Virus record (IMG/VR): IMGVR_UViG_3300029610_000240
Strand: one strand, 5' to 3'
Length of the DNA stretch: 64,000 nt
Origin: a virus
Taxonomy: Duplodnaviria; Heunggongvirae; Uroviricota; Caudoviricetes
Shown here: piece by piece, positions 7,494-60,935 of the stretch
Layout of the letters: each line of letters opens with the position of its first letter
How positions within the stretch are numbered: the first letter of the stretch is position 1
Program-made: the position numbers and the translations under genes
Notes under the pieces: model-generated
Database searches by the model: none
Told to the model about the DNA's origin: nothing
The model's input: only the letters and a program-made list of their open reading frames with translations

Positions 7494-7512
7494 GTAAAAT
7501 TGGAGGTAGATT

Positions 7513-12146: not shown

Positions 12147-12332
12147 GAAGGATGATTCCACAGTCTTTTGGCTGTGGGATTTTTGTATATCTTTAGAATT
12201 TTAGAATAATTTCATAAAATACGCATAAAATAAAAAATATGACACATATTGATAAAAAATATGATTTTTAGTATAATAAAGGAGTGTTATTTCGTGAATT
12301 ACGAATTTAAAATTTCAAGGGGGAAAGAGAAA

Positions 12333-13451: not shown

Positions 13452-13465
13452 AAGGGGATAAAACA

Positions 13466-13969: not shown

Positions 13970-13978
13970 AGGAGTTTA

Positions 13979-19460: not shown

Positions 19461-19772
19461 ATGAAACAGTATATCGGAATAAAGGTTGTTGCTGCGAGAC
19501 CAATGACAAGAGGTGACTATAATATCTTTCGAGGATGGCAGATTCCGGCAGACGAAGATCCTGCCGATGAAGGATATGTGATGAAATACGAGAATGGACA
19601 TGTGCAATGGTTGCCAAAGGATATGTTTGAGTCTGACTATAAAGAATATGACGAGAGTACCCTGCCGGCAACAGCTATTGGTATGGTAAGTTCAGATTAC
19701 AAAGAATGTTTTCAGGCAGAGTACAAGCAGCTCAGAATTCGTTATGAAAAATTGAAGAGAATGCGTCAATAA
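19461..19772 (+). CDS. hypothetical small protein
   Basis: ATG at 19461 behind GGAGAAAGGAG. Its stop codon directly abuts the IscB element's left hairpin. Confidence 0.5.
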   Translation: MKQYIGIKVVAARPMTRGDYNIFRGWQIPADEDPADEGYVMKYENGHVQWLPKDMFESDYKEYDESTLPATAIGMVSSDYKECFQAEYKQLRIRYEKLKRMRQ

Positions 19773-20044
19773 CCCCGACCTACAGTAATAACTGTTGAGG
19801 TCGGAGCTTGTAAAAGCTCATATTGACTAGCCTAAGTTCTTCGAGAACTACGTTGTTTATGTTATCACACCTGCGAATGATACCATAGTTTGCAGCCTTG
19901 TGTAGGCTCTGTAAAAGTTCTGTGAGGTAGGAACGGTCAACCTAGTATGTTCGATCACGACAAGCATTTACAACATTGGCGAAGGGTAACAAACTTTCAA
20001 AAGAAAGGGACAGCACTTGAGAGTAGCTGTCAAAGGTAAAAACT
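19773..20044 (+). ncRNA. IscB omega-RNA region
   Basis: About 270 nt of non-coding, visibly GC-richer and hairpin-rich sequence immediately 5' of iscB, which is the known position of IscB omega-RNAs. Confidence 0.65.
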
Positions 20045-23446: not shown

Positions 23447-23600
23447 CATCCTCTCCCATCTATAGAGGTGGGAGCTTCCCTAACCTCGGCAGGTTTGGTT
23501 CTCGTTCGATAGCACCAATGTGCTAAGCTTAAGCGAGCTAACCCCGTGTGTCCCACGGTTGTATTATGTGAAATTGTGGTTATGCAGTTACTATCCGCAT
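23447..23600 (-). ncRNA. TnpB omega-RNA region
   Basis: Sequence overlapping and extending past the 3' end of tnpB, GC-richer than its surroundings, ending at the element-end hairpin. Confidence 0.55.
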
Positions 23601-32730: not shown

Positions 32731-32802
32731 TGATGATGACTTAATTGATGATTTAAGACAAAGTTTTAAAAATATGTAACAGATATATGTAAAAACAAAT
32801 GG
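32731..32802 (+). CRISPR. guide module A: one spacer-like segment plus one repeat
   Basis: Repeat GTTTTAAAAATATGTAACAGATATATGTAAAAACAAATGG (32763..32802), preceded by TGATGATGACTTAATTGATGATTTAAGACAAA. Confidence 0.6.
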
Positions 32803-32804
32803 CA

Positions 32805-32872
32805 GTTACATAATGCGTAAGAATAAGAATGTATCGAATAAGTCTATATAAGTAGAATCTACCAGGTGGTAG
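32805..32872 (+). ncRNA. tracrRNA-like scaffold A
   Basis: Anti-repeat GTTACATAATGCGTAAGAAT pairs with ATATGTAAC of the repeat. Nexus AAGAATGTATCGAAT. Hairpins TCTA/TAGA and CTACC-AGG-TGGTAG (32859..32872). Confidence 0.65.
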
Positions 32873-32904
32873 AAAATATTAAAACTAACAGGAGATAATA
32901 TTTC

Positions 32905-36133: not shown

Positions 36134-36277
36134 GTTTTGTAATCGTGTAAAAGCACTTAAATATGCTGTAGAAGATGTTTTGTTACTGTGCAACGGAAAT
36201 ATGTCTAAATGATTTAATTTATTACTACTTTTTATTCCTTTGTTTTGTAACCGTGTAACGGAGACATGTCTAAATGG
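36134..36277 (+). CRISPR. guide module B mini-array (3 repeats)
   Basis: Repeats at 36134..36165 (decayed), 36177..36212 and 36242..36277 (GTTTTGTAACCGTGTAACGGAGACATGTCTAAATGG). Spacers are 11 nt and 29 nt (TTTAATTTATTACTACTTTTTATTCCTTT). Confidence 0.7.
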
Positions 36278-36356
36278 TCAAATTATTTTGCACGGTGCGT
36301 AAAAATAAGAAATTATCGAATAGGCTCGTTAAAACGAGAGCTGCCGTGTGGCAGTA
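36278..36356 (+). ncRNA. tracrRNA-like scaffold B
   Basis: TCAAATTATT linker. Anti-repeat TTGCACGGTGCGTAAAAAT pairs with ACCGTGTAA. Nexus AAGAAATTATCGAAT. Hairpins CTCGT-TAAA-ACGAG and CTGCC-GTGT-GGCAG. Confidence 0.75.
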
Positions 36357-36499
36357 AATCTAAGCTACATCAATTTCAAGATTATAATTTGGGAGGAGAA
36401 AATGTTTGGGAAAATTAATGTTTTTTATTTATTGTTGGCTATATATTTGTATTATTTGTTATATTCTTGCAGCCAAGAACAAGAAAGAAGGTGTAGTGT

Positions 36500-43880: not shown

Positions 43881-44159
43881 ACTTAAAAATAGAGTATTAT
43901 TTATTAGCATTTTCTGATATAATATAAGCAGTGTTAGAGAGATATATGTAACACCATCGTTTATTAGAAAAGAATATACAGGGAAATTGCATCATTTTAT
44001 ACAATTTCTAAAGCGAGAGGTATTCATATATCTCTCGTTTTTTTTATGTGAAGAGTATTCGATTGAATGCTCTTTTTTCTTTGTAATAATCTAAACGATT
44101 TGTTACAGATCATCTCCTGGCATGAGTAACAAAAAGCTAATATGAAAGGAAGATGCTCT

Positions 44160-45038
44160 ATGATGAAAGAAAAAGGACAATTCAAGAAAAAGTTTGTACA
44201 GAAGATTGCTACAATTATGATGGCAGCAGCTATGGTTGTGAGTGGTGGATTTGGAGTTGCACCAGCAGCGGATCATTCAGTATCCGTATATGCAACAGAT
44301 AATGCATATCGTGGTTATCATGTAACTTCTACGAAGACGGAAAAGAAACCTGCGACCTCATCTACAAAGAAAAGCAAGTTGTCAAAAAATCATGCAAACA
44401 AAACAACAAAAACAGTAACAACTACGACAACTAGCACAGGTTACAAGCATGTTGTTGCAAAAGACACGAAAACTGTAACAAAGACTGTCGTAACTACAAC
44501 AAAGGTATATTACAAAAAGACCTTAACAACAACTGTAAAAAAACAGGTAACTGTAACGACAACAACGATCAATTATCTGAGAAGCGGTAATCCAGATTAT
44601 ATGAAATTAATGGGAACAGTAAATACTCAGATTCCTACAAAGGTGGGGAATGCAATGAAAGCAGATGGATTAAAAGTAGTCCTGAATCCTAATTTATCTT
44701 ATGATGGAGTATATTCTGCTTCCAGAAATTCCATTGAAATGAAAAATAATGTAGATTATGGTTTTATGCATGAAATTGGACACTATGTGGATCGTAAGAC
44801 AGGATATGTTTCAGGCAGTACAGAATTTAAAAATATCTTTAATTCTGAAAAATCCAAATACAAAGGATTTTATTCTGACTGGAATTTAGATAGTGGAAAT
44901 TATGCAAGAACAAGCACTTCTGATTATTTTGCAGAATGTTTTAGAGATTACTACTTTAGTGCAAACTCCAGAAGCAAGTTAAAAGCAAATTGTCCTAAAT
45001 CTTATAGTTTTATTCAGAAAACAATCAATAAGTTCTAA
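44160..45038 (+). CDS. secreted zinc metalloprotease, anthrax-lethal-factor/PPEP (M34)-like domain
   Basis: Signal peptide, T/K-rich linker, MHEIGHYVD and downstream SDYFAECFRDYYFS. Confidence 0.6.
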   Translation: MMKEKGQFKKKFVQKIATIMMAAAMVVSGGFGVAPAADHSVSVYATDNAYRGYHVTSTKTEKKPATSSTKKSKLSKNHANKTTKTVTTTTTSTGYKHVVAKDTKTVTKTVVTTTKVYYKKTLTTTVKKQVTVTTTTINYLRSGNPDYMKLMGTVNTQIPTKVGNAMKADGLKVVLNPNLSYDGVYSASRNSIEMKNNVDYGFMHEIGHYVDRKTGYVSGSTEFKNIFNSEKSKYKGFYSDWNLDSGNYARTSTSDYFAECFRDYYFSANSRSKLKANCPKSYSFIQKTINKF

Positions 45039-45131: not shown

Positions 45132-45959
45132 ATGGAAAACAAAAATAACATAAGCAAGTTAACAAAAATCTTATTTGTTGCACTAGCAATGGGAATGATC
45201 TTGATTTCCCCATATCAATTATGCAATGTGGCAGCAGCTGATAAATACTATGGATACCAGAAGAAAACAAAGAGTGTAAAAACAAAGATAACAGCATCTA
45301 AAAAGAAAGTACGTATAAAAAAGAAATATAGAGGAACAAGAACCACAAAAAATGTTGAAAGCAAATGGTCTGATTCTTATAAATATACATATGGAGATGC
45401 AAAAAAGATACATATAAAGACAGTTATAACCACTCAAAAAACATATCACGGATATTTTATTACGACAAAGCGAAATATTAAAACGACAACTACAGAAAAT
45501 AAAATCAATTTTGTTCGCAATCAGAAGAAAGTTAGTTTTAATGGCCGAATTCCAAGTAATGTACAGAAACAATTGAATAGTGAAAAAATACAGATCGTCA
45601 TAAATCCAAAATTGAAACATAATGGAATCTTTTCTCTGAAAGATAAGAAAATATCCATAAAATATAACTCCGACTATGTTTTATTACATGAAATAGGACA
45701 TTTTGTAAATTACAAAAATGGTGATGCTGCACATAGTTCAGAATTTTATAATATCTACTTAAAAGAAAGAAGTAAATATCGTGGATTCTATAACGATTAT
45801 TATGAAAAGTTAGACCTTGGAAAATATGAAAGAACTACTCCTGCGGAATATTTTGCCGGAGCATATCGGGATTATTATTTTAGCAAAGATTCTCGGAATC
45901 GATTAAAAAAATATTGTCCAAATACTTATAATTTTATTACTAAATACCATTTTATTTAA
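45132..45959 (+). CDS. secreted zinc metalloprotease, paralogue of 44160..45038
   Basis: Signal peptide, LHEIGHFVN and AEYFAGAYRDYYFS. Confidence 0.6.
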   Translation: MENKNNISKLTKILFVALAMGMILISPYQLCNVAAADKYYGYQKKTKSVKTKITASKKKVRIKKKYRGTRTTKNVESKWSDSYKYTYGDAKKIHIKTVITTQKTYHGYFITTKRNIKTTTTENKINFVRNQKKVSFNGRIPSNVQKQLNSEKIQIVINPKLKHNGIFSLKDKKISIKYNSDYVLLHEIGHFVNYKNGDAAHSSEFYNIYLKERSKYRGFYNDYYEKLDLGKYERTTPAEYFAGAYRDYYFSKDSRNRLKKYCPNTYNFITKYHFI

Positions 45960-46126: not shown

Positions 46127-49100
46127 GTGCAGAATGGATTTTTAGGAATAACTGTTAGTAGTGAACAGGTTGGTTGGGCAGTTACAAATCCCAAATATGA
46201 GTTAGAACGTGCATCTCGAAAAGATTTATGGGGTGTAAGGCTTTTTGATAAAGCAGAAACAGCGGAAGATCGAAGAATGTTCCGTACAAACAGACGATTA
46301 AATCAGAGAAAAAAGAACAGAATACATTATCTTAGAGATATTTTCCATGAGGAAGTAAATCAAAAAGATCCTAACTTTTTTCAGCAATTAGATGAAAGCA
46401 ATTTCTGTGAAGATGATCGTACTGTAGAGTTTAATTTTGATACTAATCTTTATAAGAATCAGTTTCCAACAGTGTATCATTTAAGAAAATATCTAATGGA
46501 AACAAAAGATAAACCAGATATTCGTCTGGTATACTTAGCTTTTTCAAAATTTATGAAAAATCGAGGACATTTCTTATACAAAGGAAATCTTGGAGAGGTT
46601 ATGGACTTTGAAAATTCCATGAAAGGCTTTTGTGAAAGTTTAGAGAAATTTAATATTGACTTCCCTACATTATCAGATGAACAGGTAAAAGAAGTCCGAG
46701 ATATCTTATGTGATCATAAAATTGCTAAAACTGTGAAAAAGAAAAACATCATTACTATTACAAAAGTAAAAAGTAAGACAGCAAAAGCATGGATTGGACT
46801 GTTTTGTGGTTGCAGCGTTCCTGTTAAAGTATTATTTCAGGATATCGATGAAGAAATTGTAACGGATCCAGAAAAAATCTCATTTGAAGATGCTTCTTAT
46901 GATGATTGTATTGCAAATATTGAAAAGGGTGTCGGTATTTATTATGAAGCTATTGTTTCTGCAAAGATGCTTTTTGACTGGTCTATCCTGAATGAAATTT
47001 TAGGTGACCATCAGTTATTAAGTGATGCAATGATCGCAGAATACAATAAGCATCATGATGATTTAAAGCGTTTACAGAAGATCATTAAAGGAACTGGCAG
47101 TAGAGAATTATATCAGGATATCTTTATTAATGATGTTTCTGGAAATTATGTATGCTACGTTGGTCATGCAAAAACAATGAGTAGTGCAGATCAGAAACAG
47201 TTTTATACATTTTTAAAAAATCGATTAAAAAATGTGAATGGTATTTCATCAGAAGATGCAGAATGGATTGATACAGAGATTAAAAACGGTACTTTACTAC
47301 CAAAACAGACAAAACGTGATAACAGTGTTATTCCGCATCAATTACAGTTAAGGGAATTTGAATTAATTCTTGATAACATGCAGGAAATGTATCCATTCTT
47401 AAAAGAAAACAGAGAAAAATTATTAAAAATCTTCAATTTCGTTATTCCTTATTATGTAGGTCCGCTAAAGGGCGTTGTAAGAAAAGGAGAGAGTACAAAC
47501 TGGATGGTGCCTAAAAAAGATGGTGTGATTCATCCATGGAATTTCGATGAAATGGTAGACAAAGAAGCGTCTGCGGAATGTTTTATTTCCCGAATGACAG
47601 GAAATTGTAGTTATTTATTTAATGAAAAAGTTCTTCCAAAGAATTCTCTTCTTTATGAGACATTTGAGGTATTAAATGAGCTAAATCCATTAAAGATCAA
47701 TGGAGAACCTATCAGCGTGGAATTAAAACAGAGAATTTATGAACAGCTTTTCTTGACAGGGAAAAAAGTTACAAAAAAATCTCTGACAAAATATCTTATC
47801 AAGAATGGCTATGACAAAGATATTGAATTATCAGGTATTGATAATGAATTTCACAGCAATCTAAAATCTCATATTGATTTTGAGGATTACGATAATCTAT
47901 CTGATGAAGAAGTTGAACAGATTATTCTTAGAATTACAGTATTTGAAGATAAGCAGCTGTTAAAAGATTATTTAAATCGCGAGTTTGTAAAGCTCTCTGA
48001 GGATGAGAGAAAACAGATTTGCTCATTATCTTATAAAGGATGGGGAAACTTATCAGAAATGCTATTAAACGGTATTACTGTAACAGATTCCAATGGTGTA
48101 GAAGTTTCTGTAATGGATATGCTGTGGAATACAAACTTAAATCTGATGCAGATCTTAAGTAAGAAATATGGATATAAAGCAGAAATCGAACATTACAATA
48201 AAGAACATGAAAAAACCATTTATAATCGTGAAGATTTGATGGATTATTTAAATATTCCACCGGCTCAGCGTAGGAAGGTAAATCAGCTGATTACGATAGT
48301 AAAATCTCTCAAAAAGACATATGGAGTTCCAAATAAGATTTTCTTCAAAATAAGCAGAGAACATCAGGATGATCCAAAGAGAACTTCATCCAGAAAAGAA
48401 CAGCTAAAATATTTATACAAATCCTTAAAATCAGAAGATGAAAAACATCTTATGAAAGAGCTTGATGAATTGAACGATCATGAATTATCCAATGATAAAG
48501 TTTATCTTTATTTTCTACAGAAAGGACGCTGCATTTATTCTGGCAAGAAATTAAATCTTTCAAGATTAAGAAAATCTAATTATCAGAATGATATTGACTA
48601 CATTTATCCATTATCTGCAGTAAATGATCGTTCTATGAATAATAAGGTATTAACGGGAATCCAGGAGAATCGAGCAGACAAGTATACCTATTTTCCAGTT
48701 GATTCAGAAATTCAGAAAAAAATGAAGGGATTTTGGATGGAACTGGTTCTGCAGGGATTTATGACAAAGGAGAAATACTTCCGATTATCCAGAGAAAATG
48801 ATTTTTCAAAGAGCGAACTTGTTAGCTTTATTGAACGTGAAATTTCAGATAATCAGCAAAGTGGAAGAATGATTGCTTCTGTATTACAGTATTATTTCCC
48901 TGAATCAAAGATTGTATTTGTAAAAGAAAAGCTGATTTCTTCCTTTAAGAGGGATTTCCATTTAATTAGTAGTTATGGTCACAATCATTTACAAGCTGCA
49001 AAAGATGCTTATATTACGATTGTAGTTGGAAATGTATATCATACAAAATTTACAATGGACCCAGCAATCTATTTTAAGAATCATAAGAGAAAAGATTATG

Positions 49101-50065
49101 ATCTGAACCGATTATTCTTAGAAAATATCAGCAGAGATGGACAGATTGCATGGGAAAGTGGTCCATATGGGTCAATTCAGACGGTTCGAAAAGAATATGC
49201 TCAAAACCATATTGCTGTTACAAAAAGAGTCGTGGAAGTAAAAGGCGGCTTATTTAAGCAGATGCCATTAAAAAAAGGACATGGCGAATATCCATTAAAA
49301 ACCAATGATCCTAGATTTGGCAATATCGCACAGTATGGAGGGTATACGAATGTCACAGGTTCCTATTTTGTATTAGTAGAATCAATGGAGAAAGGGAAAA
49401 AACGTATTTCTTTAGAATATGTTCCAGTATATCTTCATGAGCGTTTAGAGGATGATCCTGGACATAAACTGTTAAAAGAATATCTGGTTGATCACAGAAA
49501 ACTTAATCATCCAAAGATTTTACTTGCAAAAGTAAGAAAAAACTCATTACTTAAGATTGACGGTTTTTATTATCGTTTAAATGGTCGAAGTGGAAATGCT
49601 CTTATCCTTACAAATGCAGTGGAATTGATCATGGATGACTGGCAGACAAAAACAGCAAACAAGATTTCTGGATACATGAAACGCAGAGCTATTGATAAGA
49701 AAGCAAGGGTTTATCAAAATGAATTCCATATTCAGGAATTAGAACAGCTTTATGATTTTTATTTAGATAAATTAGAGAATGGTGTTTATAAAAATCGTAA
49801 GAATAATCAGGCTGAATTAATTCACAACGAAAAAGAACAGTTTATGGAACTCAAGACAGAAGATCAGTGTGTATTATTGACTGAGATTAAAAAGCTTTTT
49901 GTATGTTCTCCAATGCAGGCAGACCTTACATTGATTGGTGGCAGCAAACACACAGGAATGATTGCTATGTCAAGCAATGTTACAAAAGCAGATTTTGCAG
50001 TCATTGCGGAAGATCCTTTAGGACTTAGAAACAAAGTAATTTATTCTCATAAAGGTGAGAAGTAA
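46127..50065 (+). CDS. cas9: Cas9 homologue (type II-A-like size) with substituted RuvC and HNH catalytic residues
   Basis: GTG start 7 nt after AAGGAGGA. Conserved: bridge helix RRMFRTNRRLNQRKKNRIHYLRDIF, FPTVYHLRKYL, NRGHFLYKG, IPHQLQL, IPYYVGPL, PWNFDEMVDKEASAECFISRMT, YKGWGNLS. Catalytic columns: LGITVSSEQVGWAV (D10 is T), IFFKISREHQ (E762 is K), DIDYIYPLS (H840 is Y), QAAKDAYITIVVG (H983 is A, D986 kept). Confidence 0.9.
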   Translation: MQNGFLGITVSSEQVGWAVTNPKYELERASRKDLWGVRLFDKAETAEDRRMFRTNRRLNQRKKNRIHYLRDIFHEEVNQKDPNFFQQLDESNFCEDDRTVEFNFDTNLYKNQFPTVYHLRKYLMETKDKPDIRLVYLAFSKFMKNRGHFLYKGNLGEVMDFENSMKGFCESLEKFNIDFPTLSDEQVKEVRDILCDHKIAKTVKKKNIITITKVKSKTAKAWIGLFCGCSVPVKVLFQDIDEEIVTDPEKISFEDASYDDCIANIEKGVGIYYEAIVSAKMLFDWSILNEILGDHQLLSDAMIAEYNKHHDDLKRLQKIIKGTGSRELYQDIFINDVSGNYVCYVGHAKTMSSADQKQFYTFLKNRLKNVNGISSEDAEWIDTEIKNGTLLPKQTKRDNSVIPHQLQLREFELILDNMQEMYPFLKENREKLLKIFNFVIPYYVGPLKGVVRKGESTNWMVPKKDGVIHPWNFDEMVDKEASAECFISRMTGNCSYLFNEKVLPKNSLLYETFEVLNELNPLKINGEPISVELKQRIYEQLFLTGKKVTKKSLTKYLIKNGYDKDIELSGIDNEFHSNLKSHIDFEDYDNLSDEEVEQIILRITVFEDKQLLKDYLNREFVKLSEDERKQICSLSYKGWGNLSEMLLNGITVTDSNGVEVSVMDMLWNTNLNLMQILSKKYGYKAEIEHYNKEHEKTIYNREDLMDYLNIPPAQRRKVNQLITIVKSLKKTYGVPNKIFFKISREHQDDPKRTSSRKEQLKYLYKSLKSEDEKHLMKELDELNDHELSNDKVYLYFLQKGRCIYSGKKLNLSRLRKSNYQNDIDYIYPLSAVNDRSMNNKVLTGIQENRADKYTYFPVDSEIQKKMKGFWMELVLQGFMTKEKYFRLSRENDFSKSELVSFIEREISDNQQSGRMIASVLQYYFPESKIVFVKEKLISSFKRDFHLISSYGHNHLQAAKDAYITIVVGNVYHTKFTMDPAIYFKNHKRKDYDLNRLFLENISRDGQIAWESGPYGSIQTVRKEYAQNHIAVTKRVVEVKGGLFKQMPLKKGHGEYPLKTNDPRFGNIAQYGGYTNVTGSYFVLVESMEKGKKRISLEYVPVYLHERLEDDPGHKLLKEYLVDHRKLNHPKILLAKVRKNSLLKIDGFYYRLNGRSGNALILTNAVELIMDDWQTKTANKISGYMKRRAIDKKARVYQNEFHIQELEQLYDFYLDKLENGVYKNRKNNQAELIHNEKEQFMELKTEDQCVLLTEIKKLFVCSPMQADLTLIGGSKHTGMIAMSSNVTKADFAVIAEDPLGLRNKVIYSHKGEK

Positions 50066-50106: not shown

Positions 50107-50259
50107 GCTTTGGAACTGCGTAGAACATGATATGTCTTATGGCTAAAAGAATTACAGGTGCATATTTTGAACTGTGTAAAACATGGCATATGGGAGAATT
50201 GGCAACGACTGGAACAGAACACAGTTTTGAAACTGTATAAAACATGACATGTCTTATGG
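50107..50259 (+). CRISPR. guide module C mini-array (3 repeats), starting 42 nt after the cas9 stop
   Basis: Repeats at 50107..50142 (6 mismatches), 50164..50193 (30 nt, decayed) and 50224..50259 (GTTTTGAAACTGTATAAAACATGACATGTCTTATGG). Spacers: 21 nt CTAAAAGAATTACAGGTGCAT and 30 nt GAGAATTGGCAACGACTGGAACAGAACACA. Confidence 0.75.
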
Positions 50260-50336
50260 TTCAAATTATTTATACAGTACGTGAAAATAAGAAATTATCG
50301 AATAAACTCGTTTAGACGAGAACTGCTAGAGGCAGT
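50260..50336 (+). ncRNA. tracrRNA-like scaffold C
   Basis: Anti-repeat TTTATACAGTACGTGAAAAT gives a 10-bp perfect pairing with ACTGTATAAA. Nexus AAGAAATTATCGAAT. Hairpins CTCGT-TTAG-ACGAG and CTGC-TAGAG-GCAG (50323..50335). Confidence 0.8.
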
Positions 50337-50352
50337 AATTGCAGAAAATGTC

Positions 50353-50385
50353 ATGAACCCCAAGCGACTTCGTCGGCCGGGGGTT
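50353..50385 (+). terminator. GC-rich hairpin after module C
   Basis: AACCCC..CGAC-TTC-GTCG..GGGGTT nested stem followed by a short T run. Confidence 0.45.
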
Positions 50386-50448
50386 TACGCACCAATTTGA
50401 TAATATTTCTAATCATATATTACCTTATATGATTAATGGAGAAAATAG

Positions 50449-50595
50449 ATGTTTCAAGTAAAAAATAAAGAAACTGGGCAAGAATATACCGTATATGCTG
50501 TCGGGGATGAATATCTGACAAAATTTCTGATTTATGAAGATGGACATTGGAAATGGCAGACTATAGATGATTTTGTTCCAGTGATTGTAGATTAA
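50449..50595 (+). CDS. 48-aa hypothetical protein
   Basis: ATG behind GGAGAAAATAG. Product MFQVKNKETGQEYTVYAVGDEYLTKFLIYEDGHWKWQTIDDFVPVIVD. Below the ORF-track cut-off. Confidence 0.4.
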   Translation: MFQVKNKETGQEYTVYAVGDEYLTKFLIYEDGHWKWQTIDDFVPVIVD

Positions 50596-50612
50596 GAAAG
50601 CGAGAAATTCAC

Positions 50613-50957
50613 ATGAAGATTACAAGAACGATTAAATTTAAAGAATATATCCTCGGATATTTAGAAAAATTAGAGGTTCATGAAGTTCGACGCATTGAAA
50701 AAGCCGGACGATTAAGCCGTGACATTATCAAAGAGGAATCTGAAAAATGCGGACACAAATTAATGATTCTTGATACGATTGAAAAAGAAAGACGTTATGA
50801 ATGTTCATTAGAAGATTTCTTATCCGTTGCAAGAGAGATTCCACTAAAAAATCAGGAGACTGTTAATACAGAAGAAAAAAATGTTCAGGAAGATAATTCA
50901 GAGGATTCTAAGTCTAAGTTAGGCGATTCTGACTGTGCCCCTTGGATTGAAGATTAA
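50613..50957 (+). CDS. hypothetical protein
   Basis: 114-aa ORF lying between guide modules C and D. Confidence 0.5.
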   Translation: MKITRTIKFKEYILGYLEKLEVHEVRRIEKAGRLSRDIIKEESEKCGHKLMILDTIEKERRYECSLEDFLSVAREIPLKNQETVNTEEKNVQEDNSEDSKSKLGDSDCAPWIED

Positions 50958-50961
50958 TGTT

Positions 50962-51117
50962 ATTTTGAGAAATGATTGCAAATGTGATCGTAGCGTACCT
51001 TACTTCACAGCTTAGTTTTGGAACTATGTAAAATCAAATGATTGCAAATGGGCAGAGAGAAAATTTGAAAAATTGTCTGTGTTTTGGAACTATGTAAAAT
51101 CAAATGATTGCAAATGG
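50962..51117 (+). CRISPR. guide module D mini-array (3 repeats)
   Basis: Repeats at 50962..50985 (internally deleted), 51015..51051 and 51081..51117 (GTTTTGGAACTATGTAAAATCAAATGATTGCAAATGG). Spacers: GATCGTAGCGTACCTTACTTCACAGCTTA and GCAGAGAGAAAATTTGAAAAATTGTCTGT. Confidence 0.8.
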
Positions 51118-51193
51118 TCAAAGTAATTGCATGGCGTGTAAAAATAAGAATTTATCGAAATAATTTGCTCCGGCGAAATCTGCAAGATGCAGA
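51118..51193 (+). ncRNA. tracrRNA-like scaffold D
   Basis: TCAAAGTAA linker. Anti-repeat TTGCATGGCGTGTAAAAAT pairs with CTATGTAA through two G:U. Nexus AAGAATTTATCGAAAT. Hairpins TTTGC-TCCG-GCGAA and TCTGC-AAGA-TGCAGA. Confidence 0.75.
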
Positions 51194-51197
51194 AATC

Positions 51198-51265
51198 AAG
51201 CTGATCGATGCTTTACATATTTATCTATTTCAATATTTCTTCAACCATATACATTGATCAGCTTT
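51198..51265 (+). terminator. long-loop inverted repeat with AGCTGATC core (possible terminator)
   Basis: AAGCTGATCGATG pairs with CATTGATCAGCTT (13 bp, one G:U) around a 42-nt loop. A related element lies at 54054..54131. Confidence 0.4.
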
Positions 51266-51290
51266 AATAAAAAGAATTAAAATTACGAAA

Positions 51291-51445
51291 ATAAAATTGA
51301 ATGATTCCAATGGATAGTCGAAAAAGAATTGGATAGTCGACGGGTTTTAGAATAGTGTAAAATTGAATGATTCTAAGGGTTAGATACTCCACTAGATAGC
51401 AAAGTACTTGTTTTAGAATAGTGTAAAATTAAATGATTCTAAGGG
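51291..51445 (+). CRISPR. guide module E mini-array (3 repeats)
   Basis: Repeats at 51292..51313 (3' half only), 51344..51379 (GTTTTAGAATAGTGTAAAATTGAATGATTCTAAGGG) and 51410..51445. Spacers: ATAGTCGAAAAAGAATTGGATAGTCGACGG and TTAGATACTCCACTAGATAGCAAAGTACTT. Confidence 0.8.
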
Positions 51446-51528
51446 GTCAAATAGATTCTATACAATGCGTGAAAATAAGAAACTTATCGAACAAACCTGT
51501 GTAGGAAACAGGAACTGCCGAGGGCAGT
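51446..51528 (+). ncRNA. tracrRNA-like scaffold E
   Basis: GTCAAATAGAT linker, anti-repeat TCTATACAATGCGTGAAAAT, nexus AAGAAACTTATCGAAC. Hairpins CCTGT-GTAGGAA-ACAGG and CTGCC-GAG-GGCAG (51515..51527). Confidence 0.75.
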
Positions 51529-51823
51529 AAAAATAAAAAGCATATTTTTATTATGTTTTATTTTATGATGAAGAGGTGGATGATGGTTCTATCTCTGTTT
51601 TTGAGAAAATGGATGCATTGCAAAATGCAACAATCTTAGAAGTACAAATACATATTGATGACTTAAAAGATAAATTGGAAGAAGTAAAATTTACTCTTAA
51701 AATATCAGGTTTGTATTTGAAGAAGATAATTTTATGGATTCTTATTATAAATCTTATACGTTACCGATTGTATATCACAAAAACTATTTATTAAGTATTA
51801 ACAATGATAAGGAATAACAATAA

Positions 51824-53755
51824 ATGGAAATAGATTACAGAAAAGAATTAAATAAGAGTCAATATGAAGCTGTTACAACGACAGAAGGACCAGTCCTAAT
51901 CCTTGCCGGTGCCGGAACTGGCAAAACTCGTTGTATGGTATATCGTGTGGCATATCTGATTGAAAAAGGCGTGTCACCCAATAATATCTTATTATTGACC
52001 TTTACAAATAAAGCAGCAAATGAAATGAAGCAAAGGGCAGCAGATATGCTTGATGAACGATGTAGTCAAATTACTGCATGTACATATCATTCATTCTGTG
52101 CAAAGATGCTTCGCAAATATTCACAACTGATTGGAATTCAATCAGATTATACAATTATTGATCCGGGAGATTGTGCAGATATCATATCGATCATCGAAAC
52201 AGAACACGGTATGGATAAAGTAAAAGATTTTCCAAGATCATCTCAACTGGTATCAGCACATAGCAAAGCCTTAAATACGAATCAGTCATTAGAGGATACT
52301 TTGTTTGATATGCTCGGTAAATGGAAGTATATGGAAATCGAAAGATTCATTCCAGATATAAAGAAAATCTTAGCGGATTATCAATCATACAAAAAACAAA
52401 ACAACATGATGGATTATGATGATTTGCTAATCAATTTTATATCTGTATTGAAAAGAAACCCTTCTATAAAGAATAAATTAGCTGATATTTATCAGTATAT
52501 TATGATCGACGAATATCAGGATTCTAATTATTTACAGGAAAAGATTATTTTTATGTTACGTGAAAAGAATCGTAACTTAGCAGTGGTAGGTGATGATTAC
52601 CAATGCATCTATGGATTTAGAGGAAGTATGGTAGAAAATATCATTAATTTTCCACAAAAGATGTCCGGATGTAAAGTTGTTTACTTAACACAGAATTATC
52701 GCAGCAATCAAGAGATCATGGATTTATCCAATATTGTTATGAAAAAACATTCACTGGAAGGTTTTTTTAAAAAGCTTGTCGCAACTCATGTGGCCAATAT
52801 TCAGCCATTGCTAGTTCGATCAGAGGACGAGGGCGAAGAAGCTTCTTATATTTTAAATAAGATTATGGCATTACATGATGAAGAAGAGATTCCGTATCAT
52901 GAAATTTGTGTTCTTGAAAGAAGTTCTTATCATTCTGTAAGACTAGAAGCACTTTTAAATAAAATGAAAATCCCATATGACAAATATGGTGGAATGAAGT
53001 TTTTTGATTATGATCATATCAAAAACTTCTTATGCTTTTTGCGATGTCAGATAAATCCACATGATGAAATTGCGTGGTTTCGACTATTAAAGTTATTTGA
53101 TGGTATTGGAAATGTTTATGCCAGAAATATCGCAGCAACATGTAAAACTCTTGGATTAGAGGGACTTGTTCAACACAAATACATAAAAAGAAAATTTCAG
53201 CCGGATCTTGAAAATTTAAAGAGTTTTATTGAAAAGCTTAATGATCAAGATTTTCAGATCGAATTGCAAAGCATTAAATCATTTTATTCACGTTTAATGG
53301 ACATTACATTAATGCTGATGAAAACATCGGAGAAGAAACGTAGGGAGCTTGCTAGAGCAAATAAACAAGCGGTCCGCGATTTTGATACACTGATTGAAAT
53401 GGCAGATGGATATGATTCTCCAGTGACATTTCTGGAAGAAATAATGCTTGAAGCCAGTCCTCAGAAAGAGGAAGAGGAAGATCGAATGGTTATATCTACA
53501 ATTCATTCCGCAAAAGGCTTAGAGTTTCACTCTGTTTTTGTTATGAACTGCGTAGATACAATGTTTCCATCTACAGATAAAGATCAGATTGGAACAGTAG
53601 AAGATAACGAAGAGTTGAGATGCTTCTATGTGGCAATAACACGGGCAAAAGAACGATTATTTTTAATGGCACCGAAATATATAGCCAAATTTGGATGTGT
53701 TGAAGAGGGAATTATCTCCCATTTTATTAGTGATGTTTTTCAAGTAAAGGAGTAA
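51824..53755 (+). CDS. UvrD/PcrA-type SF1 DNA helicase
   Basis: Walker A AGAGTGKT, motif II IMIDEYQDSN, QNYRSNQEI, late STIHSAKGLEF and FYVAITRAKERL. Confidence 0.85.
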   Translation: MEIDYRKELNKSQYEAVTTTEGPVLILAGAGTGKTRCMVYRVAYLIEKGVSPNNILLLTFTNKAANEMKQRAADMLDERCSQITACTYHSFCAKMLRKYSQLIGIQSDYTIIDPGDCADIISIIETEHGMDKVKDFPRSSQLVSAHSKALNTNQSLEDTLFDMLGKWKYMEIERFIPDIKKILADYQSYKKQNNMMDYDDLLINFISVLKRNPSIKNKLADIYQYIMIDEYQDSNYLQEKIIFMLREKNRNLAVVGDDYQCIYGFRGSMVENIINFPQKMSGCKVVYLTQNYRSNQEIMDLSNIVMKKHSLEGFFKKLVATHVANIQPLLVRSEDEGEEASYILNKIMALHDEEEIPYHEICVLERSSYHSVRLEALLNKMKIPYDKYGGMKFFDYDHIKNFLCFLRCQINPHDEIAWFRLLKLFDGIGNVYARNIAATCKTLGLEGLVQHKYIKRKFQPDLENLKSFIEKLNDQDFQIELQSIKSFYSRLMDITLMLMKTSEKKRRELARANKQAVRDFDTLIEMADGYDSPVTFLEEIMLEASPQKEEEEDRMVISTIHSAKGLEFHSVFVMNCVDTMFPSTDKDQIGTVEDNEELRCFYVAITRAKERLFLMAPKYIAKFGCVEEGIISHFISDVFQVKE

Positions 53756-53791
53756 TTTATAGTGAAATGCTTAAATTATGTTGTCAATGTG

Positions 53792-53965
53792 GATTTGAAT
53801 CCATGTAAAAATGTAAAGCAAATGATTCCAAATGGCAATCTTCTCGAATTGTCGTGTAGGCAAAGTTTTGAAACCATGTAAAAAAATGATTCCAAATGGG
53901 TATGCATTGGTGTTTGAAGCGTTTGTGTGTTTTGGAACCATGTAAAAGCAAATGATTCCAAATGG
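53792..53965 (+). CRISPR. guide module F mini-array (3 repeats)
   Basis: Repeats at 53792..53835 (internal duplication), 53865..53899 (2-nt deletion) and 53929..53965 (GTTTTGGAACCATGTAAAAGCAAATGATTCCAAATGG). Spacers: CAATCTTCTCGAATTGTCGTGTAGGCAAA and GTATGCATTGGTGTTTGAAGCGTTTGTGT. Confidence 0.8.
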
Positions 53966-54043
53966 TTAAAAGCAGATTACATGGTGTGTCAAAATAAGAA
54001 CTTATCGAATAGATCTATATAAATGGAATCTGCCAGGTGGCAG
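53966..54043 (+). ncRNA. tracrRNA-like scaffold F
   Basis: Anti-repeat TTACATGGTGTGTCAAAAT gives a 9-bp perfect pairing with ACCATGTAA. Nexus AAGAACTTATCGAAT. Hairpin 2 CTGCC-AGGT-GGCAG (54030..54043). Hairpin 1 is weak and resembles that of scaffold A. Confidence 0.75.
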
Positions 54044-54053
54044 AAAAAAACTG

Positions 54054-54131
54054 AAAAAGCTGATCAATAATAACTGTTGTTACCATAATATTAATTTATG
54101 TTTTTGTATTTTGTCTATTGATCAGCTTTTT
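54054..54131 (+). terminator. 16-bp perfect long-loop inverted repeat with AGCTGATC core
   Basis: AAAAAGCTGATCAATA pairs perfectly with TATTGATCAGCTTTTT around a 46-nt loop. Confidence 0.5.
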
Positions 54132-54133
54132 GC

Positions 54134-55411
54134 ATGAAAATGAAAGTTATAAATATGGCAATGAAGAAAGTCGGTGATGATAAATTGAGAAGAAAAGTAG
54201 TCAGTTTTTTACTTGTTACACTTATGATGGCAACGATCACTCCTGTACATGCAGATGAGGTGTCAGAACCAACAACTGCTGCGACAGAAGTTACAACAAC
54301 AGAAACGAAGCCGACTACGACAGAAAAAAAAGAAACAACTCATCATAAGGAAAAAACAGTAAAAAAAGATAAGAAAACAAAAAAGAAAAATACTAAAAAA
54401 GATGGGAAAAAGAAAAGTAAACAAAAAGAAAAATCTAAAAAAAAGGAAAACAAAAAATCAACAATTCCGATGCCTAAACGGGCTGTAAAGAAAAAAGGTT
54501 GTGATACTGTACAAAAGAAGATTGTAAAAATGCAATCAAAGATTAAAAAGTTGCAGAAAGAACAAAAAAATATCCGAAAAGAGATCAAAAAAGAAAATAA
54601 TAAAAAAGAAGCACTGCAGCGATTTTATCAGCAATATCCTACAGAGCGTGAAGCAACTATGAAACTGCGAGGACAAAAGATTACACCTCTTACTAAGATT
54701 TCAGAGGAAGACGATGCATTAAGAAATAGATTATTCAGTTTAGCTAATACATTTCATGACGATCAACTACGTAAAATTGCCTCTGAGTACGTCTTTGGCG
54801 TAAGAGATCTTAATTTTGAAGACCTGTTAAACGAGGATGATACCATTGACCTTAATACATATTTAAAAGGCAAATATATTGCTCCAACGCAGAATATGCA
54901 GATAGGAATTAAAAATAAGGATCAAGAAATTCAAAAATTAAAGAAACAGATCAAAGAGGAAAAGAAAACCAGATTTTTTGATCCGAAAAACGTAAATTCT
55001 ATTAGCAATATTACAGTTGATGATGCTAAAAAGATGTTGTCTGGAACGCAATTATATCCAGAAGCAGAAGCTTTTGTTAAAGCAGAAAGAATTCATCATG
55101 TAAATGCAGTCTTTTTAATGGGAATTGCTGCACATGAAAGTGCCTGGGGAACAAGCCGGCGTGCCAGAGAAGATAATAATTTAACTGGATATGGAGTTTA
55201 CTCAGATAGTGCAAAGGGCATCAATAAGACAAGCAAAGAAGAAGGATTATTAGCCACCGCTGAGACATTGCACGAACGATACTTAACCCCTGGAGGCAGC
55301 TATTACGAAGGAACTTCCGTTGCTGATGTAAATAAACATTATTGTGTCGGAAATGAATGGGCCGGAGCGGTAGTTGGTTATGCTTATCAATTAATGAATA
55401 AACTAAATTAG
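54134..55411 (+). CDS. secreted Lys-rich protein with C-terminal GH73-type glucosaminidase domain
   Basis: Signal peptide and K/E-rich low-complexity linker. AVFLMGIAAHESAWGTSRRAREDNNLTGYGV is the FlgJ/GH73 catalytic region. Confidence 0.75.
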   Translation: MKMKVINMAMKKVGDDKLRRKVVSFLLVTLMMATITPVHADEVSEPTTAATEVTTTETKPTTTEKKETTHHKEKTVKKDKKTKKKNTKKDGKKKSKQKEKSKKKENKKSTIPMPKRAVKKKGCDTVQKKIVKMQSKIKKLQKEQKNIRKEIKKENNKKEALQRFYQQYPTEREATMKLRGQKITPLTKISEEDDALRNRLFSLANTFHDDQLRKIASEYVFGVRDLNFEDLLNEDDTIDLNTYLKGKYIAPTQNMQIGIKNKDQEIQKLKKQIKEEKKTRFFDPKNVNSISNITVDDAKKMLSGTQLYPEAEAFVKAERIHHVNAVFLMGIAAHESAWGTSRRAREDNNLTGYGVYSDSAKGINKTSKEEGLLATAETLHERYLTPGGSYYEGTSVADVNKHYCVGNEWAGAVVGYAYQLMNKLN

Positions 55412-55543
55412 ATATCATCAAAGAGGTTTTGGTTAACTAAAGGTTGATTATCGGTATATCATTGTTCGGTGTCTGTAGACAGCATTTTTTCAAATCTATA
55501 GTTGTTATAAAATAAGAGACACTTTCATGTATAGTGGAGTTTA

Positions 55544-55570
55544 GTTTCAGAAGTTTATAAAAACAGATAA
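55544..55570 (+). CRISPR. guide module G: single divergent repeat
   Basis: GTTTCAGAAGTTTATAAAAACAGATAA, preceded by the candidate guide GAGACACTTTCATGTATAGTGGAGTTTA. Confidence 0.5.
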
Positions 55571-55580
55571 CTATTAATGA

Positions 55581-55658
55581 TTATCTGTTTCATGGATTGT
55601 GTAAAAATAAGCAAATTAGCGAATATGCTCGTTGAAACGAGAGCTGTTAGATAACAGC
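55581..55658 (+). ncRNA. tracrRNA-like scaffold G
   Basis: TTATCTGTTT pairs perfectly with AAACAGATAA across a 10-nt loop. GATTGTGTAAAAAT, nexus variant AAGCAAATTAGCGAAT. Hairpins CTCGT-TGAA-ACGAG and GCTGTTA-GA-TAACAGC. Confidence 0.6.
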
Positions 55659-55710
55659 TAAAAATGTAACTATATAAATTAATTTGTAAATTATAGGGAG
55701 GACTATTTTA

Positions 55711-55866
55711 GTGAAACACGGTAAAGTTCCAACAAGAAATCAAAAAGAACTTATGTTAAAAAATAATCTTAATCCGAAAGAATGGCTGGTTGTAAAGAAA
55801 ATGGCGGATGGATTTGAGATTGTTAATAGAGAAAATGAAGCAGATCGTAAATTTCTGTATTGTTAA
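55711..55866 (+). CDS. 51-aa small protein
   Basis: GTG start behind GGGAGGA. Product MKHGKVPTRNQKELMLKNNLNPKEWLVVKK.. resembles small conserved proteins of Firmicutes mobile elements, recalled from memory. Below the ORF-track cut-off. Confidence 0.45.
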   Translation: MKHGKVPTRNQKELMLKNNLNPKEWLVVKKMADGFEIVNRENEADRKFLYC

Positions 55867-55875
55867 GGTGAAATA

Positions 55876-56091
55876 ATGATGGATATTTACACAAGATTAT
55901 TGATGATGGATATTATGATATCGGCAGTAGCTATTATGGTAAATATCTTAGAAAATTGTCCGATTAACGGTAAAATACACAATATTTCAAGAATTTTAAT
56001 CATATCTAGTATTGCTGCAGACATTATCTTACTTTTAGGAATTGTCAATACGTTCATCTCATACAGTATCCTGTATTCTTATTTTAAATAA
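55876..56091 (+). CDS. small membrane protein
   Basis: 71 aa with two hydrophobic helices. Its stop overlaps the first, partial repeat of module H. Confidence 0.45.
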   Translation: MMDIYTRLLMMDIMISAVAIMVNILENCPINGKIHNISRILIISSIAADIILLLGIVNTFISYSILYSYFK

Positions 56092-56094
56092 GAT

Positions 56095-56249
56095 ACAGAA
56101 GAATCATTGTCGATGTTAAACATATTATGTGAAACATTATTGTCAGGCTTTAGAAGTCTATAAAACAGAATCATTGTCAATGAGATCAAATTCTTTATGA
56201 CAACGCAATACAGCTTTAGAAGTCTATAAAACAGAATCATTGTCAATGG
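56095..56249 (+). CRISPR. guide module H mini-array (3 repeats)
   Basis: Repeats at 56095..56115 (3' half only), 56147..56183 and 56213..56249 (GCTTTAGAAGTCTATAAAACAGAATCATTGTCAATGG). Spacers: TTAAACATATTATGTGAAACATTATTGTCAG and GATCAAATTCTTTATGACAACGCAATACA. Confidence 0.8.
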
Positions 56250-56325
56250 TCAAATAAGCAGACTGCGTAAAAATAAGAATTTTATCGATATTGCTCGTGT
56301 AGTCGAGAACTGCCAAGTGGCAGCA
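56250..56325 (+). ncRNA. tracrRNA-like scaffold H
   Basis: TCAAATAAG linker, anti-repeat CAGACTGCGTAAAAAT, nexus AAGAATTTTATCGAT. Hairpins CTCG-TGTAGT-CGAG and CTGCC-AAGT-GGCAG (56310..56323). The next gene's RBS follows 18 nt later. Confidence 0.75.
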
Positions 56326-56352
56326 ACATTTATAATAAAAAGGAGGAATTAT

Positions 56353-57769: not shown

Positions 57770-59011
57770 TTATTTTATTTTCATGATCTCGGCCATTAGC
57801 CACTCTGGTTTTCGTTTTGTGTAAGTAGCTTCTGTGATATCGTTGATCTTGTGACCCATCATATATTTTAATGCATATTCATCTACTTTATCTCTTTTTG
57901 CCATCGTGGAAAACTGAATCCTTGGATCATGAGCTCTGTGATCTGGATTGAGCTCTAATTTCTTAACAATCTTTTCGAATCGATGTCTATATTTATCATA
58001 CGTCATTTTTAAGCTACTTCGGTGTGTTTTTGTATCAGTGCAGTTGATTAAATAATCACTTCCAAGATTTATTGCTTCCTGGTATCGATGCTTGACTAGA
58101 TCACGAATCCGTGGATGGATTGGAACCAAGCGATCTTTACCTGCGTCAGTCTTCATACCGCCGATAAAAAACCAATTTTCCAGATCTACATTTTTTAATT
58201 CAATTAGACCCAATTCTTGTGGTCGCCATCCAGAGTAGCATTGGATCAGAATCACATCCACATAATCAGTATCATACAAATGATCCCATAATTTTTTTAT
58301 TTCTTCATCCGTAAAATCAATATGGTCCTTCTTCGCTTCTTTAACATCTTTAATAACATCATCAGACAAATTAAAGGTCCTTGCATAATTCTTGTCTACT
58401 AATTCATACTCTAGCGCATAATCCAACATTAAGTTGAATAGAGATTTTATCTTTGTCTTTGTAGTAGGAGATGCGTGTTTTTCTTTACCATCGACTACAT
58501 ACGTTCCATCTTCCATACAACCTTTAATATGTCGGGCACGTAAATCTTTTGCACGCATATCATAAACAGCAGAGCAGTAGTTCCAGGCAGATTTAATTGT
58601 ACGTTCACTTGAAGGACTTGACAGGGATTCAAAATATTTATCAGTCCACTTTTCGTATAATTGCTCGACTGTCAGATCAGAGTCAAGATCATACGGATTT
58701 TTATGATATTCAAGTAATGCAGCGTAAGCATCATTATAGGTTTTGAAATATGTTTCTGGTTTCAATGATTTATAAATAGGTTTTCCATAAAAATTTTTTC
58801 CAACACAGACTAATGCACGAAAAGGCTTTCTAAGATTTTGATTTTTTAATTCGGATATAGTGCCAAATCCATTTGGAAGACGTTTTCGTTTATTAGTTTT
58901 TCTTTGTTGTTGTTTAATAACTTTTGTATCTAGAGGATAACCGCAGTGAGGACAAGTTATTGCCTTATCACTTACCTGCAATTGACATTCTGGACATTTG
59001 ATCAGTGCCAT
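57770..59011 (-). CDS. tyrosine recombinase/integrase with N-terminal zinc ribbon
   Basis: CPECQ..CPHCG at the N-terminus. C-terminal catalytic pattern RAHDPRIQF..MMGHKINDITEATYTKR (R..HxxR..Y). Confidence 0.85.
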   Translation of the reverse strand: MALIKCPECQLQVSDKAITCPHCGYPLDTKVIKQQQRKTNKRKRLPNGFGTISELKNQNLRKPFRALVCVGKNFYGKPIYKSLKPETYFKTYNDAYAALLEYHKNPYDLDSDLTVEQLYEKWTDKYFESLSSPSSERTIKSAWNYCSAVYDMRAKDLRARHIKGCMEDGTYVVDGKEKHASPTTKTKIKSLFNLMLDYALEYELVDKNYARTFNLSDDVIKDVKEAKKDHIDFTDEEIKKLWDHLYDTDYVDVILIQCYSGWRPQELGLIELKNVDLENWFFIGGMKTDAGKDRLVPIHPRIRDLVKHRYQEAINLGSDYLINCTDTKTHRSSLKMTYDKYRHRFEKIVKKLELNPDHRAHDPRIQFSTMAKRDKVDEYALKYMMGHKINDITEATYTKRKPEWLMAEIMKIK

Positions 59012-60799: not shown

Positions 60800-60912
60800 G
60801 TGCGCCCAGATAAGGGCGAGTAGTCTAGCAGGTGGAATGCCTGTCTGGTAAGGTCTAACCAACCGCCAGTAGCGAGTCTTGGGTCTTCCATAGTCTGCGC
60901 CATACCAGCGTT
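60800..60912 (+). mobile_element. 5' fragment of a group II intron (about 110 bp)
   Basis: GTGCGCCCAGATAAGGGCGAGTAG.. matches the conserved bacterial group II intron 5' end (GUGCG; Ll.LtrB starts GTGCGCCCAGATAGGGTG). No RT/maturase or domain V follows. Confidence 0.6.
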
Positions 60913-60935
60913 TATGAAGAAAAAATCAAAGGCTC

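Follow-up and report, generated by a model that had tools for sequence, protein, structure and literature searches.

Can a Cas9 protein that has lost the catalytic residues of both nuclease sites still act as a guided effector, and if so, upon what? The question is raised by a 64,000-nucleotide stretch of DNA held in IMG/VR as virus record IMGVR_UViG_3300029610_000240 (this whole stretch is the window in what follows). Positions 46127-50065 of its + strand encode a 1312-residue, nuclease-dead Cas9 (dCas9) that is identical to WP_044924278.1 of Anaerostipes hadrus. The gene lies within a one-directional gene block of a Tn916-like integrative conjugative element of that species. Taken together, the comparative sequence data suggest that the protein is probably a type II-A-derived effector that has lost both nuclease activities and would silence rival elements by binding alone.

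The gene is intact. A single unbroken frame runs from a GTG start at 46127, with an AAGGAGG ribosome-binding site 7 nt to its 5' side, to a stop codon that ends at 50065; these are the limits given in a preliminary description of the locus, which had also reported an uninterrupted 1312-residue reading frame. The NCBIfam Cas9 equivalog model, TIGR01865, spans the protein end to end (model positions 3-1070 of 1070, E = 6.7e-235). Pfam matches Cas9_REC, Cas9_PI, Cas9-BH and HNH_4, with the Cas9_RuvC match falling under the cut-off. The layout is that of a Cas9: a RuvC domain split by the bridge helix and recognition (REC) lobe and again by HNH, followed by a C-terminal domain that interacts with the protospacer-adjacent motif (PAM), termed PI. 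The guide- and DNA-binding motifs quoted in the preliminary description are all present in the translation. The best solved relative is FrCas9 (PDB 9jwk, phmmer E = 7e-216), and the next is SpCas9 (~1e-135).

The catalytic columns were placed by phmmer alignment to the SpCas9 and FrCas9 chains and by aligning 48 lineage members and 99 canonical relatives in MAFFT. Against SpCas9, phmmer positions four segments, all encoded on the + strand. GITVSS falls on GLDIGT, which places Thr (T9, codon 46151-46153) at the RuvC-I Asp column, D10. IFFKISREHQ falls on IVIEMARENQ, which places Lys (K741, codon 48347-48349) at the RuvC-II Glu column, E762. Within the HNH region (~aa 746-898, 48362-48820), DIDYIYPLS falls on DVDHIVPQS and places Tyr (Y825, 48599-48601) at H840. 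The last segment, LQAAKDAY, falls on YHHAHDAY; its RuvC-III motif Q956-A957-A-K-D960 (48992-49006) carries Gln at H982 and Ala at H983, and keeps D986. The RuvC set of Cas9 (Asp10/Glu762/His983/Asp986) reads T, K, A, D in this protein, and the HNH set (Asp839/His840/Asn863) reads D, Y, N; the HNH columns D839, N854 and N863 are retained.

These substitutions are fixed across the lineage. Thr at D10 and Lys at E762 occur in all 46 members that cover those columns (70-100% identical), and the H982 column is Gln and the H983 column Ala, Ser or Tyr in 48 of 48. Among the canonical relatives, E762, D839, H840, N854, N863, H982, H983 and D986 are kept in 99/99 and D10 in 98/99. A single substitution is enough to abolish cleavage by either domain of SpCas9: D10A for RuvC, H840A for HNH. 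The preliminary description had read D10T, E762K, H840Y and H983A with D986 kept. Both profile alignments return the same columns, in which no catalytic Asp, Glu or His is found except D986. Two of its readings need adjustment. At the AAKDAY site, the Ala at H983 stands, while the Lys is not a special change, as canonical relatives read LHHAKDAY. Loss of the HNH His holds for the window and for 31 of the 32 members that have an HNH domain, each with Tyr at the H840 column, and fails for one, P0020, which keeps His.

Does this pattern reflect decay or selection? The 90% identity cluster of the protein has 2780 member sequences, and 1867 blocks of the assembly collection hold its exact sequence. 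Relatives follow at 89%, 74%, 73% and 71% identity, and then there is a gap to ~42-43%, where the canonical Cas9s start; the nearest active Cas9 among 5.8 billion proteins is ~42% identical. A megablast search with the gene against phages and plasmids gave no match. By the Nei-Gojobori method, five dCas9 genes give whole-gene dN/dS (omega) values of 0.06-0.11 across dS up to ~2. In the unsaturated pair, the window and related locus L006 (dS 0.67), omega is 0.087 for the whole gene and 0.047 in the HNH domain. Values this low exclude decay of dCas9, and the value of ~0.05 in HNH, despite its replaced His, suggests that the dead domain does something.

A second line of evidence comes from deletions. 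Sixteen more clusters are at least 99.6% identical to the window protein yet only 1151-1159 residues long, and lack the HNH domain. Their junctions are of at least eight distinct kinds, all in-frame: 741|895, 748|902, 742|899, 741|899, 746|906, 741|902, 739|901 and 743|902. The endpoints all fall within residues 739-748 and 895-906, the HNH domain alone is lost, the frame is always kept, and microhomology at the junctions is 0-3 nt. The L008 gene, for example, misses sequence equal to window positions 48352-48815, and one HNH-less variant was independently assembled from two sources. An AlphaFold model of an HNH-less variant has moderate confidence (predicted local distance difference test score, pLDDT, 74; predicted template modelling score, pTM, 0.47). 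In Foldseek, this model matches FrCas9 and SpCas9 at E 1e-53, which is enough to show that the variant, as modelled, keeps the Cas9 fold. Engineered delta-HNH Cas9 still binds DNA, and these natural forms recall it. Over short spans HNH has been dispensed with again and again, whereas the remainder of dCas9 must stay intact; over long spans the dead HNH is nevertheless conserved. Substitutions fixed down to 70% identity, low dN/dS, an intact and common reading frame and in-frame deletions of HNH alone together indicate selection rather than decay, as the preliminary description had proposed. The surroundings of the gene, too, are those of a working system, with tracrRNAs, arrays, spacers matched to mobile elements and a consistent PAM-like flank. 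The possible refutation given there, that close relatives might be pseudogenes, is not borne out: the reading frame is full-length across the assemblies that hold it, and all deletions seen are in-frame.

The guides of the system appear to lie in eight modules, M1 to M8. The window contains eight copies of the RNA motif RAGATH-30 (Rfam RF03055), all on the + strand, scoring 64.7-78.6 bits against a gathering score of 59.5. The Rfam entry describes the motif as 'Gene; sRNA' only. Its consensus consists of AAAAUAAGAAUUUAUCGAA and, after it, two hairpins, which is how a type II-A trans-activating RNA (tracrRNA) is built in its 3' part. Each copy is preceded by one to three type II-A-like 36-nt repeats, full or truncated (e.g. 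GTTTTGGAACCATGTAAAAGCAAATGATTCCAAATG), with spacers of ~30 nt, and an anti-repeat lies immediately 5' of each copy, outside the modelled region. As in type II systems, then, the tracrRNA carries an anti-repeat predicted to be complementary to the repeat, and mini-arrays of one to three repeats lie near cas9.

All eight modules are on the + strand. M1 (32763-32875) has a single repeat and then the tracrRNA (RAGATH-30 at 32817-32875), and M2 (36134-36357) has three repeats, two of them degenerate, and a tracrRNA at 36299-36357. M3 (50107-50338) directly follows the Cas9 stop codon; its three degenerate repeats hold 'fixed' guides conserved among elements, and its tracrRNA is at 50281-50338. M4 (50970-51195) consists of a truncated repeat, spacer 50985-51014, a repeat, spacer 51052-51080, a repeat and tracrRNA 51138-51195, and its spacers vary. 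M5 (51344-51530) has two repeats, one variable spacer (51380-51409) and tracrRNA 51469-51530. M6 (53792-54046) has three repeats, spacers 53835-53864 and 53899-53928, and tracrRNA 53988-54046. M7 (55544-55660) has a single repeat, a conserved guide and tracrRNA 55601-55660. Finally, M8 (56147-56326) has two repeats, a variable spacer at 56183-56212 and tracrRNA 56267-56326.

Repeats vary between modules, and the anti-repeat of each module follows its own repeat. Across 15 modules, the two-helix repeat:anti-repeat duplex has 87.6% of cells paired, against 37-50% with the partner slid. Six pairs show compensatory changes, and none of 500 shuffles reaches the observed values. In predicted folds, the terminal repeat and tracrRNA fold in cis in the manner of a single-guide RNA, with a loop of ~30-35 nt between repeat and anti-repeat. 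Related loci are built similarly: L001, the 74%-identical locus, has a 7-repeat array directly 3' of its dCas9 gene, and RAGATH-30 scores above the gathering score beside the 73%- and 89%-identical dCas9 genes and just under it in L001 (50-59 bits).

Targets of these guides can be identified in other mobile elements. The M4 spacer at 50985-51014 matches a 45.6-kb IMG/VR contig at 30/30 positions. The same spacer matches at 29/30 on three more IMG/VR contigs and in prophage-like regions of a Eubacterium sp. metagenome-assembled genome and of Clostridium sp. OF09-36. Its protospacer lies in a prophage PemK-like gene, part of a replication module together with DNA polymerase A, an Enc34-type single-stranded DNA-binding protein and DUF2800. 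The M6 spacer at 53899-53928 has a 30/30 match in a small integrative element (L032, L035), whose genes include those for a Tn916-type integrase, a Rep protein and an FtsK-like protein. Three further spacers, from other arrays and elements, match this small element perfectly, one of them from the array of the 74%-identical dCas9. Its four protospacers lie within ~1 kb around the rep gene, on both strands. An ssNA-helicase RNA motif (RF03070, 58.8 bits) forms a hairpin 5' of the rep gene in L035 (7456-7503, -), and the perfect protospacer of the L001 spacer (7482-7511, +) lies inside this hairpin.

The five perfect 30/30 protospacers have the 3' flanks AGAAGT, TAAAAT, TAAACC, CGTAAT and GAAAAT; TAAAAT, for instance, follows protospacer GGTATGCATTGGTGTTTGAAGCGTTTGTGT. 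All five flanks have a purine at position 2 and A at position 4, and four of the five have A at position 3. This common flank suggests a PAM of the form N-R-A-A.

No spacer match was found in the window or related element loci within 4-6 mismatches, which bears on self-targeting. Concatenated spacers (33, then 31) gave no BLAST match to PLSDB plasmids and one to GenBank phages, at 28/30, to MT837920 (L011). This match was rejected as a target: the record is bacterial DNA (glmM, prfA, prmC), and the flank ACAC misfits the PAM. Although its label reads 'UNVERIFIED: Bacteriophage sp.', MT837920.1 has genes for GlmM, release factor 1, PrmC and further housekeeping proteins; the match is to a spacer of L004 and lies inside prfA. 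Of eight exact scans of IMG/VR, five gave no match, and in one the matches were to the arrays themselves, on contigs that bear a viral label. Two IMG/VR records, L028 and L029 (UViG_3300029328_000184 and 3300045988_176874; 200 kb and 61 kb), carry the element's guide arrays. What is catalogued there as viral is a conjugative element, or a host contig.

The arrays turn over. Between the window and L008, both spacers of M6 are replaced within flanks that are ~99% identical, and 37 distinct spacers occur in M4, M5, M6 and M8 among the near-identical elements examined. The arrays are nested (A; A-B; A-B-C), which suggests that new units enter at the end nearest the tracrRNA. In L015 (17804-17905), the same spacer, TATCATGAATATAATCAAAATGATTCTAGT, stands twice in tandem, which points to unit duplication besides gain and loss.

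Turnover of this kind occurs where no adaptation genes were found. Pfam detects no Cas1, Cas2 or Csn2 domain in the ~50 reading frames of the window. With Cas1, Cas2 and Csn2 queries from the nearest canonical locus, where the order is cas9-cas1-cas2-csn2, tblastn gave no match in the window or in any related element locus. The cas1-cas2-csn2 set that defines a type II-A locus was thus not found in this one.

These observations can be assembled into a proposed mechanism. The parts of Cas9 that bind the guide, bind DNA and read the PAM are retained under strong purifying selection, and three RuvC residues (Asp10, Glu762 and His983) and the HNH His (His840) are lost. The last repeat, joined in cis to the tracrRNA, would yield a natural single-guide RNA. 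Dead Cas9 with the module guides would then bind matching DNA of rival mobile elements, and the bound complex would block transcription or replication of the rival with no break made. Loss of cleavage fits such targets because cutting a rival that sits in the host's own chromosome would be fatal. Adaptation machinery acting in trans would presumably install new spacers; nuclease-dead SpCas9 supports PAM-specific spacer acquisition. The 'fixed' guides of M3 and M7 may have a separate regulatory role.

Several observations weigh against silencing by binding. Targets are identified for only 5 of 56 spacers, and the PAM comes from five sites. The two best-placed protospacers of window spacers are on the coding strand, which is the weaker orientation for blocking RNA polymerase with engineered dCas9. 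Purifying selection on HNH is very strong (omega ~0.05) though its His is replaced, and one member keeps that His. The tracrRNAs are without a U-tract terminator, terminator-like sites falling on the wrong strand, and a promoter scan gave 39 sites against 32 expected in shuffles, with no module promoter found. An A-run, not a U-tract, comes after the last tracrRNA hairpin, and the modules from 50107 to 56326 each stop 20-40 nt short of the ribosome-binding site of the gene that follows; the guides may therefore be excised from long operon transcripts. A TGTAAAA(T/C) sequence is kept in all repeat variants and resembles a -10 box. Judged by its sequence, it could be an internal promoter, as in type II-C repeats.

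Five other explanations have to be weighed. In order of plausibility, dCas9 is: a targeting scaffold; an RNA-guided regulator; a decoy; a nuclease of non-canonical chemistry; or a decaying remnant. The last three fit the data poorly.

As a targeting scaffold, dead Cas9 would find the target and a partner in trans, a UvrD-like helicase or a nuclease, would destroy or remodel it, a division of labour comparable to DinG in type IV-A and to Cas3 recruitment. A UvrD-like helicase gene, identified by Pfam, does lie between the guide modules of the window (51824-53755, +), and is likewise present in L006, L008 and L012-L021; the strongly conserved dead HNH could be a docking surface. However, the helicase is absent beside the 73-74%-identical dCas9 genes (L001, L004), no nuclease gene is consistently linked to dCas9, and variants without the putative docking surface arise repeatedly. 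Such helicases are also usual replication or transfer genes of conjugative elements. As a Cas partner, UvrD was rejected because it is not conserved beside the more distant dCas9 genes, and its membership in the system is uncertain. On balance, a scaffold is an unlikely explanation.

The guides themselves offer the case for an RNA-guided regulator, in which conserved guides would send dead Cas9 to promoters of the element or host, comparable to tracr-L and scaRNA with active Cas9. Across elements, the guides of M3 and M7 and those in first position in M5 and M8 are conserved, differing by point mutations only, and M3 stands directly 3' of the cas9 stop codon. Against this, searches of the 64-kb window and related loci gave neither a match of at least 14 bases nor, low-complexity sequence aside, a 10-14-nt seed match. 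Most arrays, moreover, are hypervariable and match foreign elements. Regulation is improbable as the main function, to about the same degree as the scaffold, and could coexist with silencing of rivals. The M3 conserved guide at 50195-50223 (GAGAATTGGCAACGACTGGAAC...) and an L001 spacer at 7629-7658 (..GGGAATTAGCGACGACAGGAAC) overlap with an 8-nt offset and four mismatches. By sequence the two look as if aimed at a common target, for which no match was found in any collection scanned.

A decoy has direct precedent. In variant II-C2, a phage Cas9 has an inactivated RuvC beside an active HNH, lacks an array and comes with a tracrRNA matched to host repeats; it has been proposed to act as a decoy (PMC10910872; PMC12669027). 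By analogy, a dominant-negative dCas9 would absorb host CRISPR RNAs as an anti-CRISPR. The resemblance extends to an inactivated nuclease domain, a mobile-element carrier without cas1 and cas2 or other adaptation genes, a helicase gene nearby and a tracrRNA. Here, however, both sites are hit, the HNH His being replaced, and the system has its own arrays, with spacers matching mobile elements. Every anti-repeat is tuned to its own neighbouring repeat. The nearest active Cas9 is also distant, and the tracrRNA region of this nearest canonical system gives no match to the RAGATH-30 model. A decoy function is very unlikely.

Residual nuclease or nickase activity would require non-canonical chemistry: the HNH Tyr, D986 with other acidic residues, or His-retaining relatives. 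The strong purifying selection on HNH is consistent with such activity, as are the H840 equivalent in P0020 and the retained D839, N854, N863 and D986. Three of the four RuvC ligands are nevertheless gone in every member, and the whole HNH domain has been deleted at least eight times in otherwise intact genes, which leaves little likelihood for this explanation. Lastly, a decaying remnant of a once-active system, a pseudogene in progress, could account for lost adaptation genes, missing catalytic residues and some degenerate repeats, but is hardly credible given dN/dS of ~0.09 across dS up to ~2, a full-length reading frame across assemblies, deletions that are all in-frame, and spacers that turn over and have perfect targets.

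Silencing by binding alone can then be placed among known systems. With type II-A of gut Firmicutes (FrCas9; P0068-type loci), dCas9 shares the domain order RuvC-I, bridge helix, REC, RuvC-II, HNH, RuvC-III, PI. The likeness also includes 36-nt repeats starting GTTT and spacers of 30 nt. It extends to the tracrRNA, in which an anti-repeat and a nexus-like AUAAGAAAUUAUCG element are joined by two 3' hairpins. Unlike in type II-A, both nuclease sites are replaced, no cas1, cas2 or csn2 was found, the carrier is a conjugative element, and eight dispersed mini-arrays each have a same-strand tracrRNA in place of one array and one tracrRNA. The PAM-like flank, N-R-A-A, also differs from the NNTA PAM of FrCas9.

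Engineered dCas9 (SpCas9 D10A/H840A) is neutralised at the same two catalytic positions. The natural protein differs in its origin and in that E762 and H983 are also changed. Its guides resemble the engineered single-guide RNA in joining the terminal repeat in cis to the tracrRNA, with a ~30-35-nt loop rather than a tetraloop.

In mode of action, the present system most plausibly works like V-M (Cas12m), V-C (Cas12c) and IV-A, an analogy that rests on shared features: a non-cleaving effector, plasmid or conjugative carriage, usually no adaptation module, and spacers against competing elements. Binding-only immunity is known for V-C, V-M and IV-A (PMC11656645, PMC12669027), and type IV-A3 acquires spacers in trans (Benz et al., bioRxiv 10.1101/2023.06.23.546257). 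Their effectors (Cas12, Csf complexes) are unrelated or only distantly related to dCas9. Judged on gene content, the locus belongs with binding-only, element-borne systems: no predicted target nuclease, a mobile-element carrier and spacers against other mobile elements.

No type II example appears among the binding-only systems described in PMC11656645, PMC12669027 and bioRxiv 10.1101/2023.06.23.546257, and the 2025 classification gives variant II-C2 as the only inactivated type II form (PMC12669027). A natural Cas9 with both sites dead and its own guides was found neither in that classification nor in the literature searched, which returned nothing on this dCas9 lineage, only engineered dCas9 or unrelated papers. 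The preliminary description had stated that no naturally dead Cas9 lineage was described. This survives for proteins with both sites dead, of which none was found, and is too broad otherwise, as a phage II-C Cas9 with dead RuvC and live HNH was described in 2023 (PMC10910872). The literature searched also held nothing linking RAGATH-30 to tracrRNA, the paper that introduced RAGATH having no searchable motif text. A fuller claim is that the system represents a subtype-level variant of type II: spacer-acquiring, nuclease-free, abundant in the gut and borne by conjugative elements, with natural single-guide RNAs (RAGATH-30) that silence integrated elements and phages without breaks, with adaptation in trans, and with HNH being shed. 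The odds of this fuller claim are about even.

The surrounding element has a conserved gene order: a Peptidase_C1/lectin protein, one or two ATLF-like proteins, dCas9, in some elements the UvrD-like helicase, a glucosaminidase, DUF6906, and a Tn916-type Xis and Int. Its integration site in most A. hadrus contigs is beside a csoR-like gene and a copper ATPase gene. The ATLF-like paralogues (anthrax lethal factor domain) lie directly 5' of dCas9 at 44142-45038 and 45132-45959, and have signal-peptide-like N-termini; at least one such gene stands upstream of dCas9 in every related locus that covers that side.

The element also carries a second, unrelated RNA-guided system, a HEARO RNA (RF02033, 112 bits) at 19765-19994 directly 5' of an IscB-type reading frame at 20045-21319 (RRXRR and HNH domains). 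A TnpB gene (OrfB_IS605 and Cas12f1-like TNB; 23580-24698, -) and two IS200-type Y1 transposase genes (7056-7493 and 17020-17433) are inserted in the element. A restriction-modification cluster at 12249-16359 encodes an AAA_21 protein, an Eco57I-like N6 methylase and a BsuBI/PstI-type endonuclease. Positions 60835-60923 match, below threshold, a group II intron D1-D4 model (21.9 bits against a gathering score of 49), near a second integrase gene, of zinc-ribbon type (57770-59011, -), that is missing there in related elements.

Engineered dCas9 is among the most used tools in biology, which makes a natural counterpart of interest. If the proposed reading is true, type II would join types IV and V in having repeatedly given up cleavage on mobile elements, and the rationale for the loss would be that the targets are integrated, so that cutting them would be lethal to the host. 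The system would also supply a dCas9 optimised by nature, together with single-guide RNAs of natural origin, the HNH deletions would amount to a natural experiment, repeated at least eight times, showing where this domain can be excised, and the orphan Rfam motif RAGATH-30 would be assigned a function. As the exact protein occurs in so many blocks of the assembly collection, the finding also bears on the ecology of A. hadrus, a major butyrate producer of the human gut.

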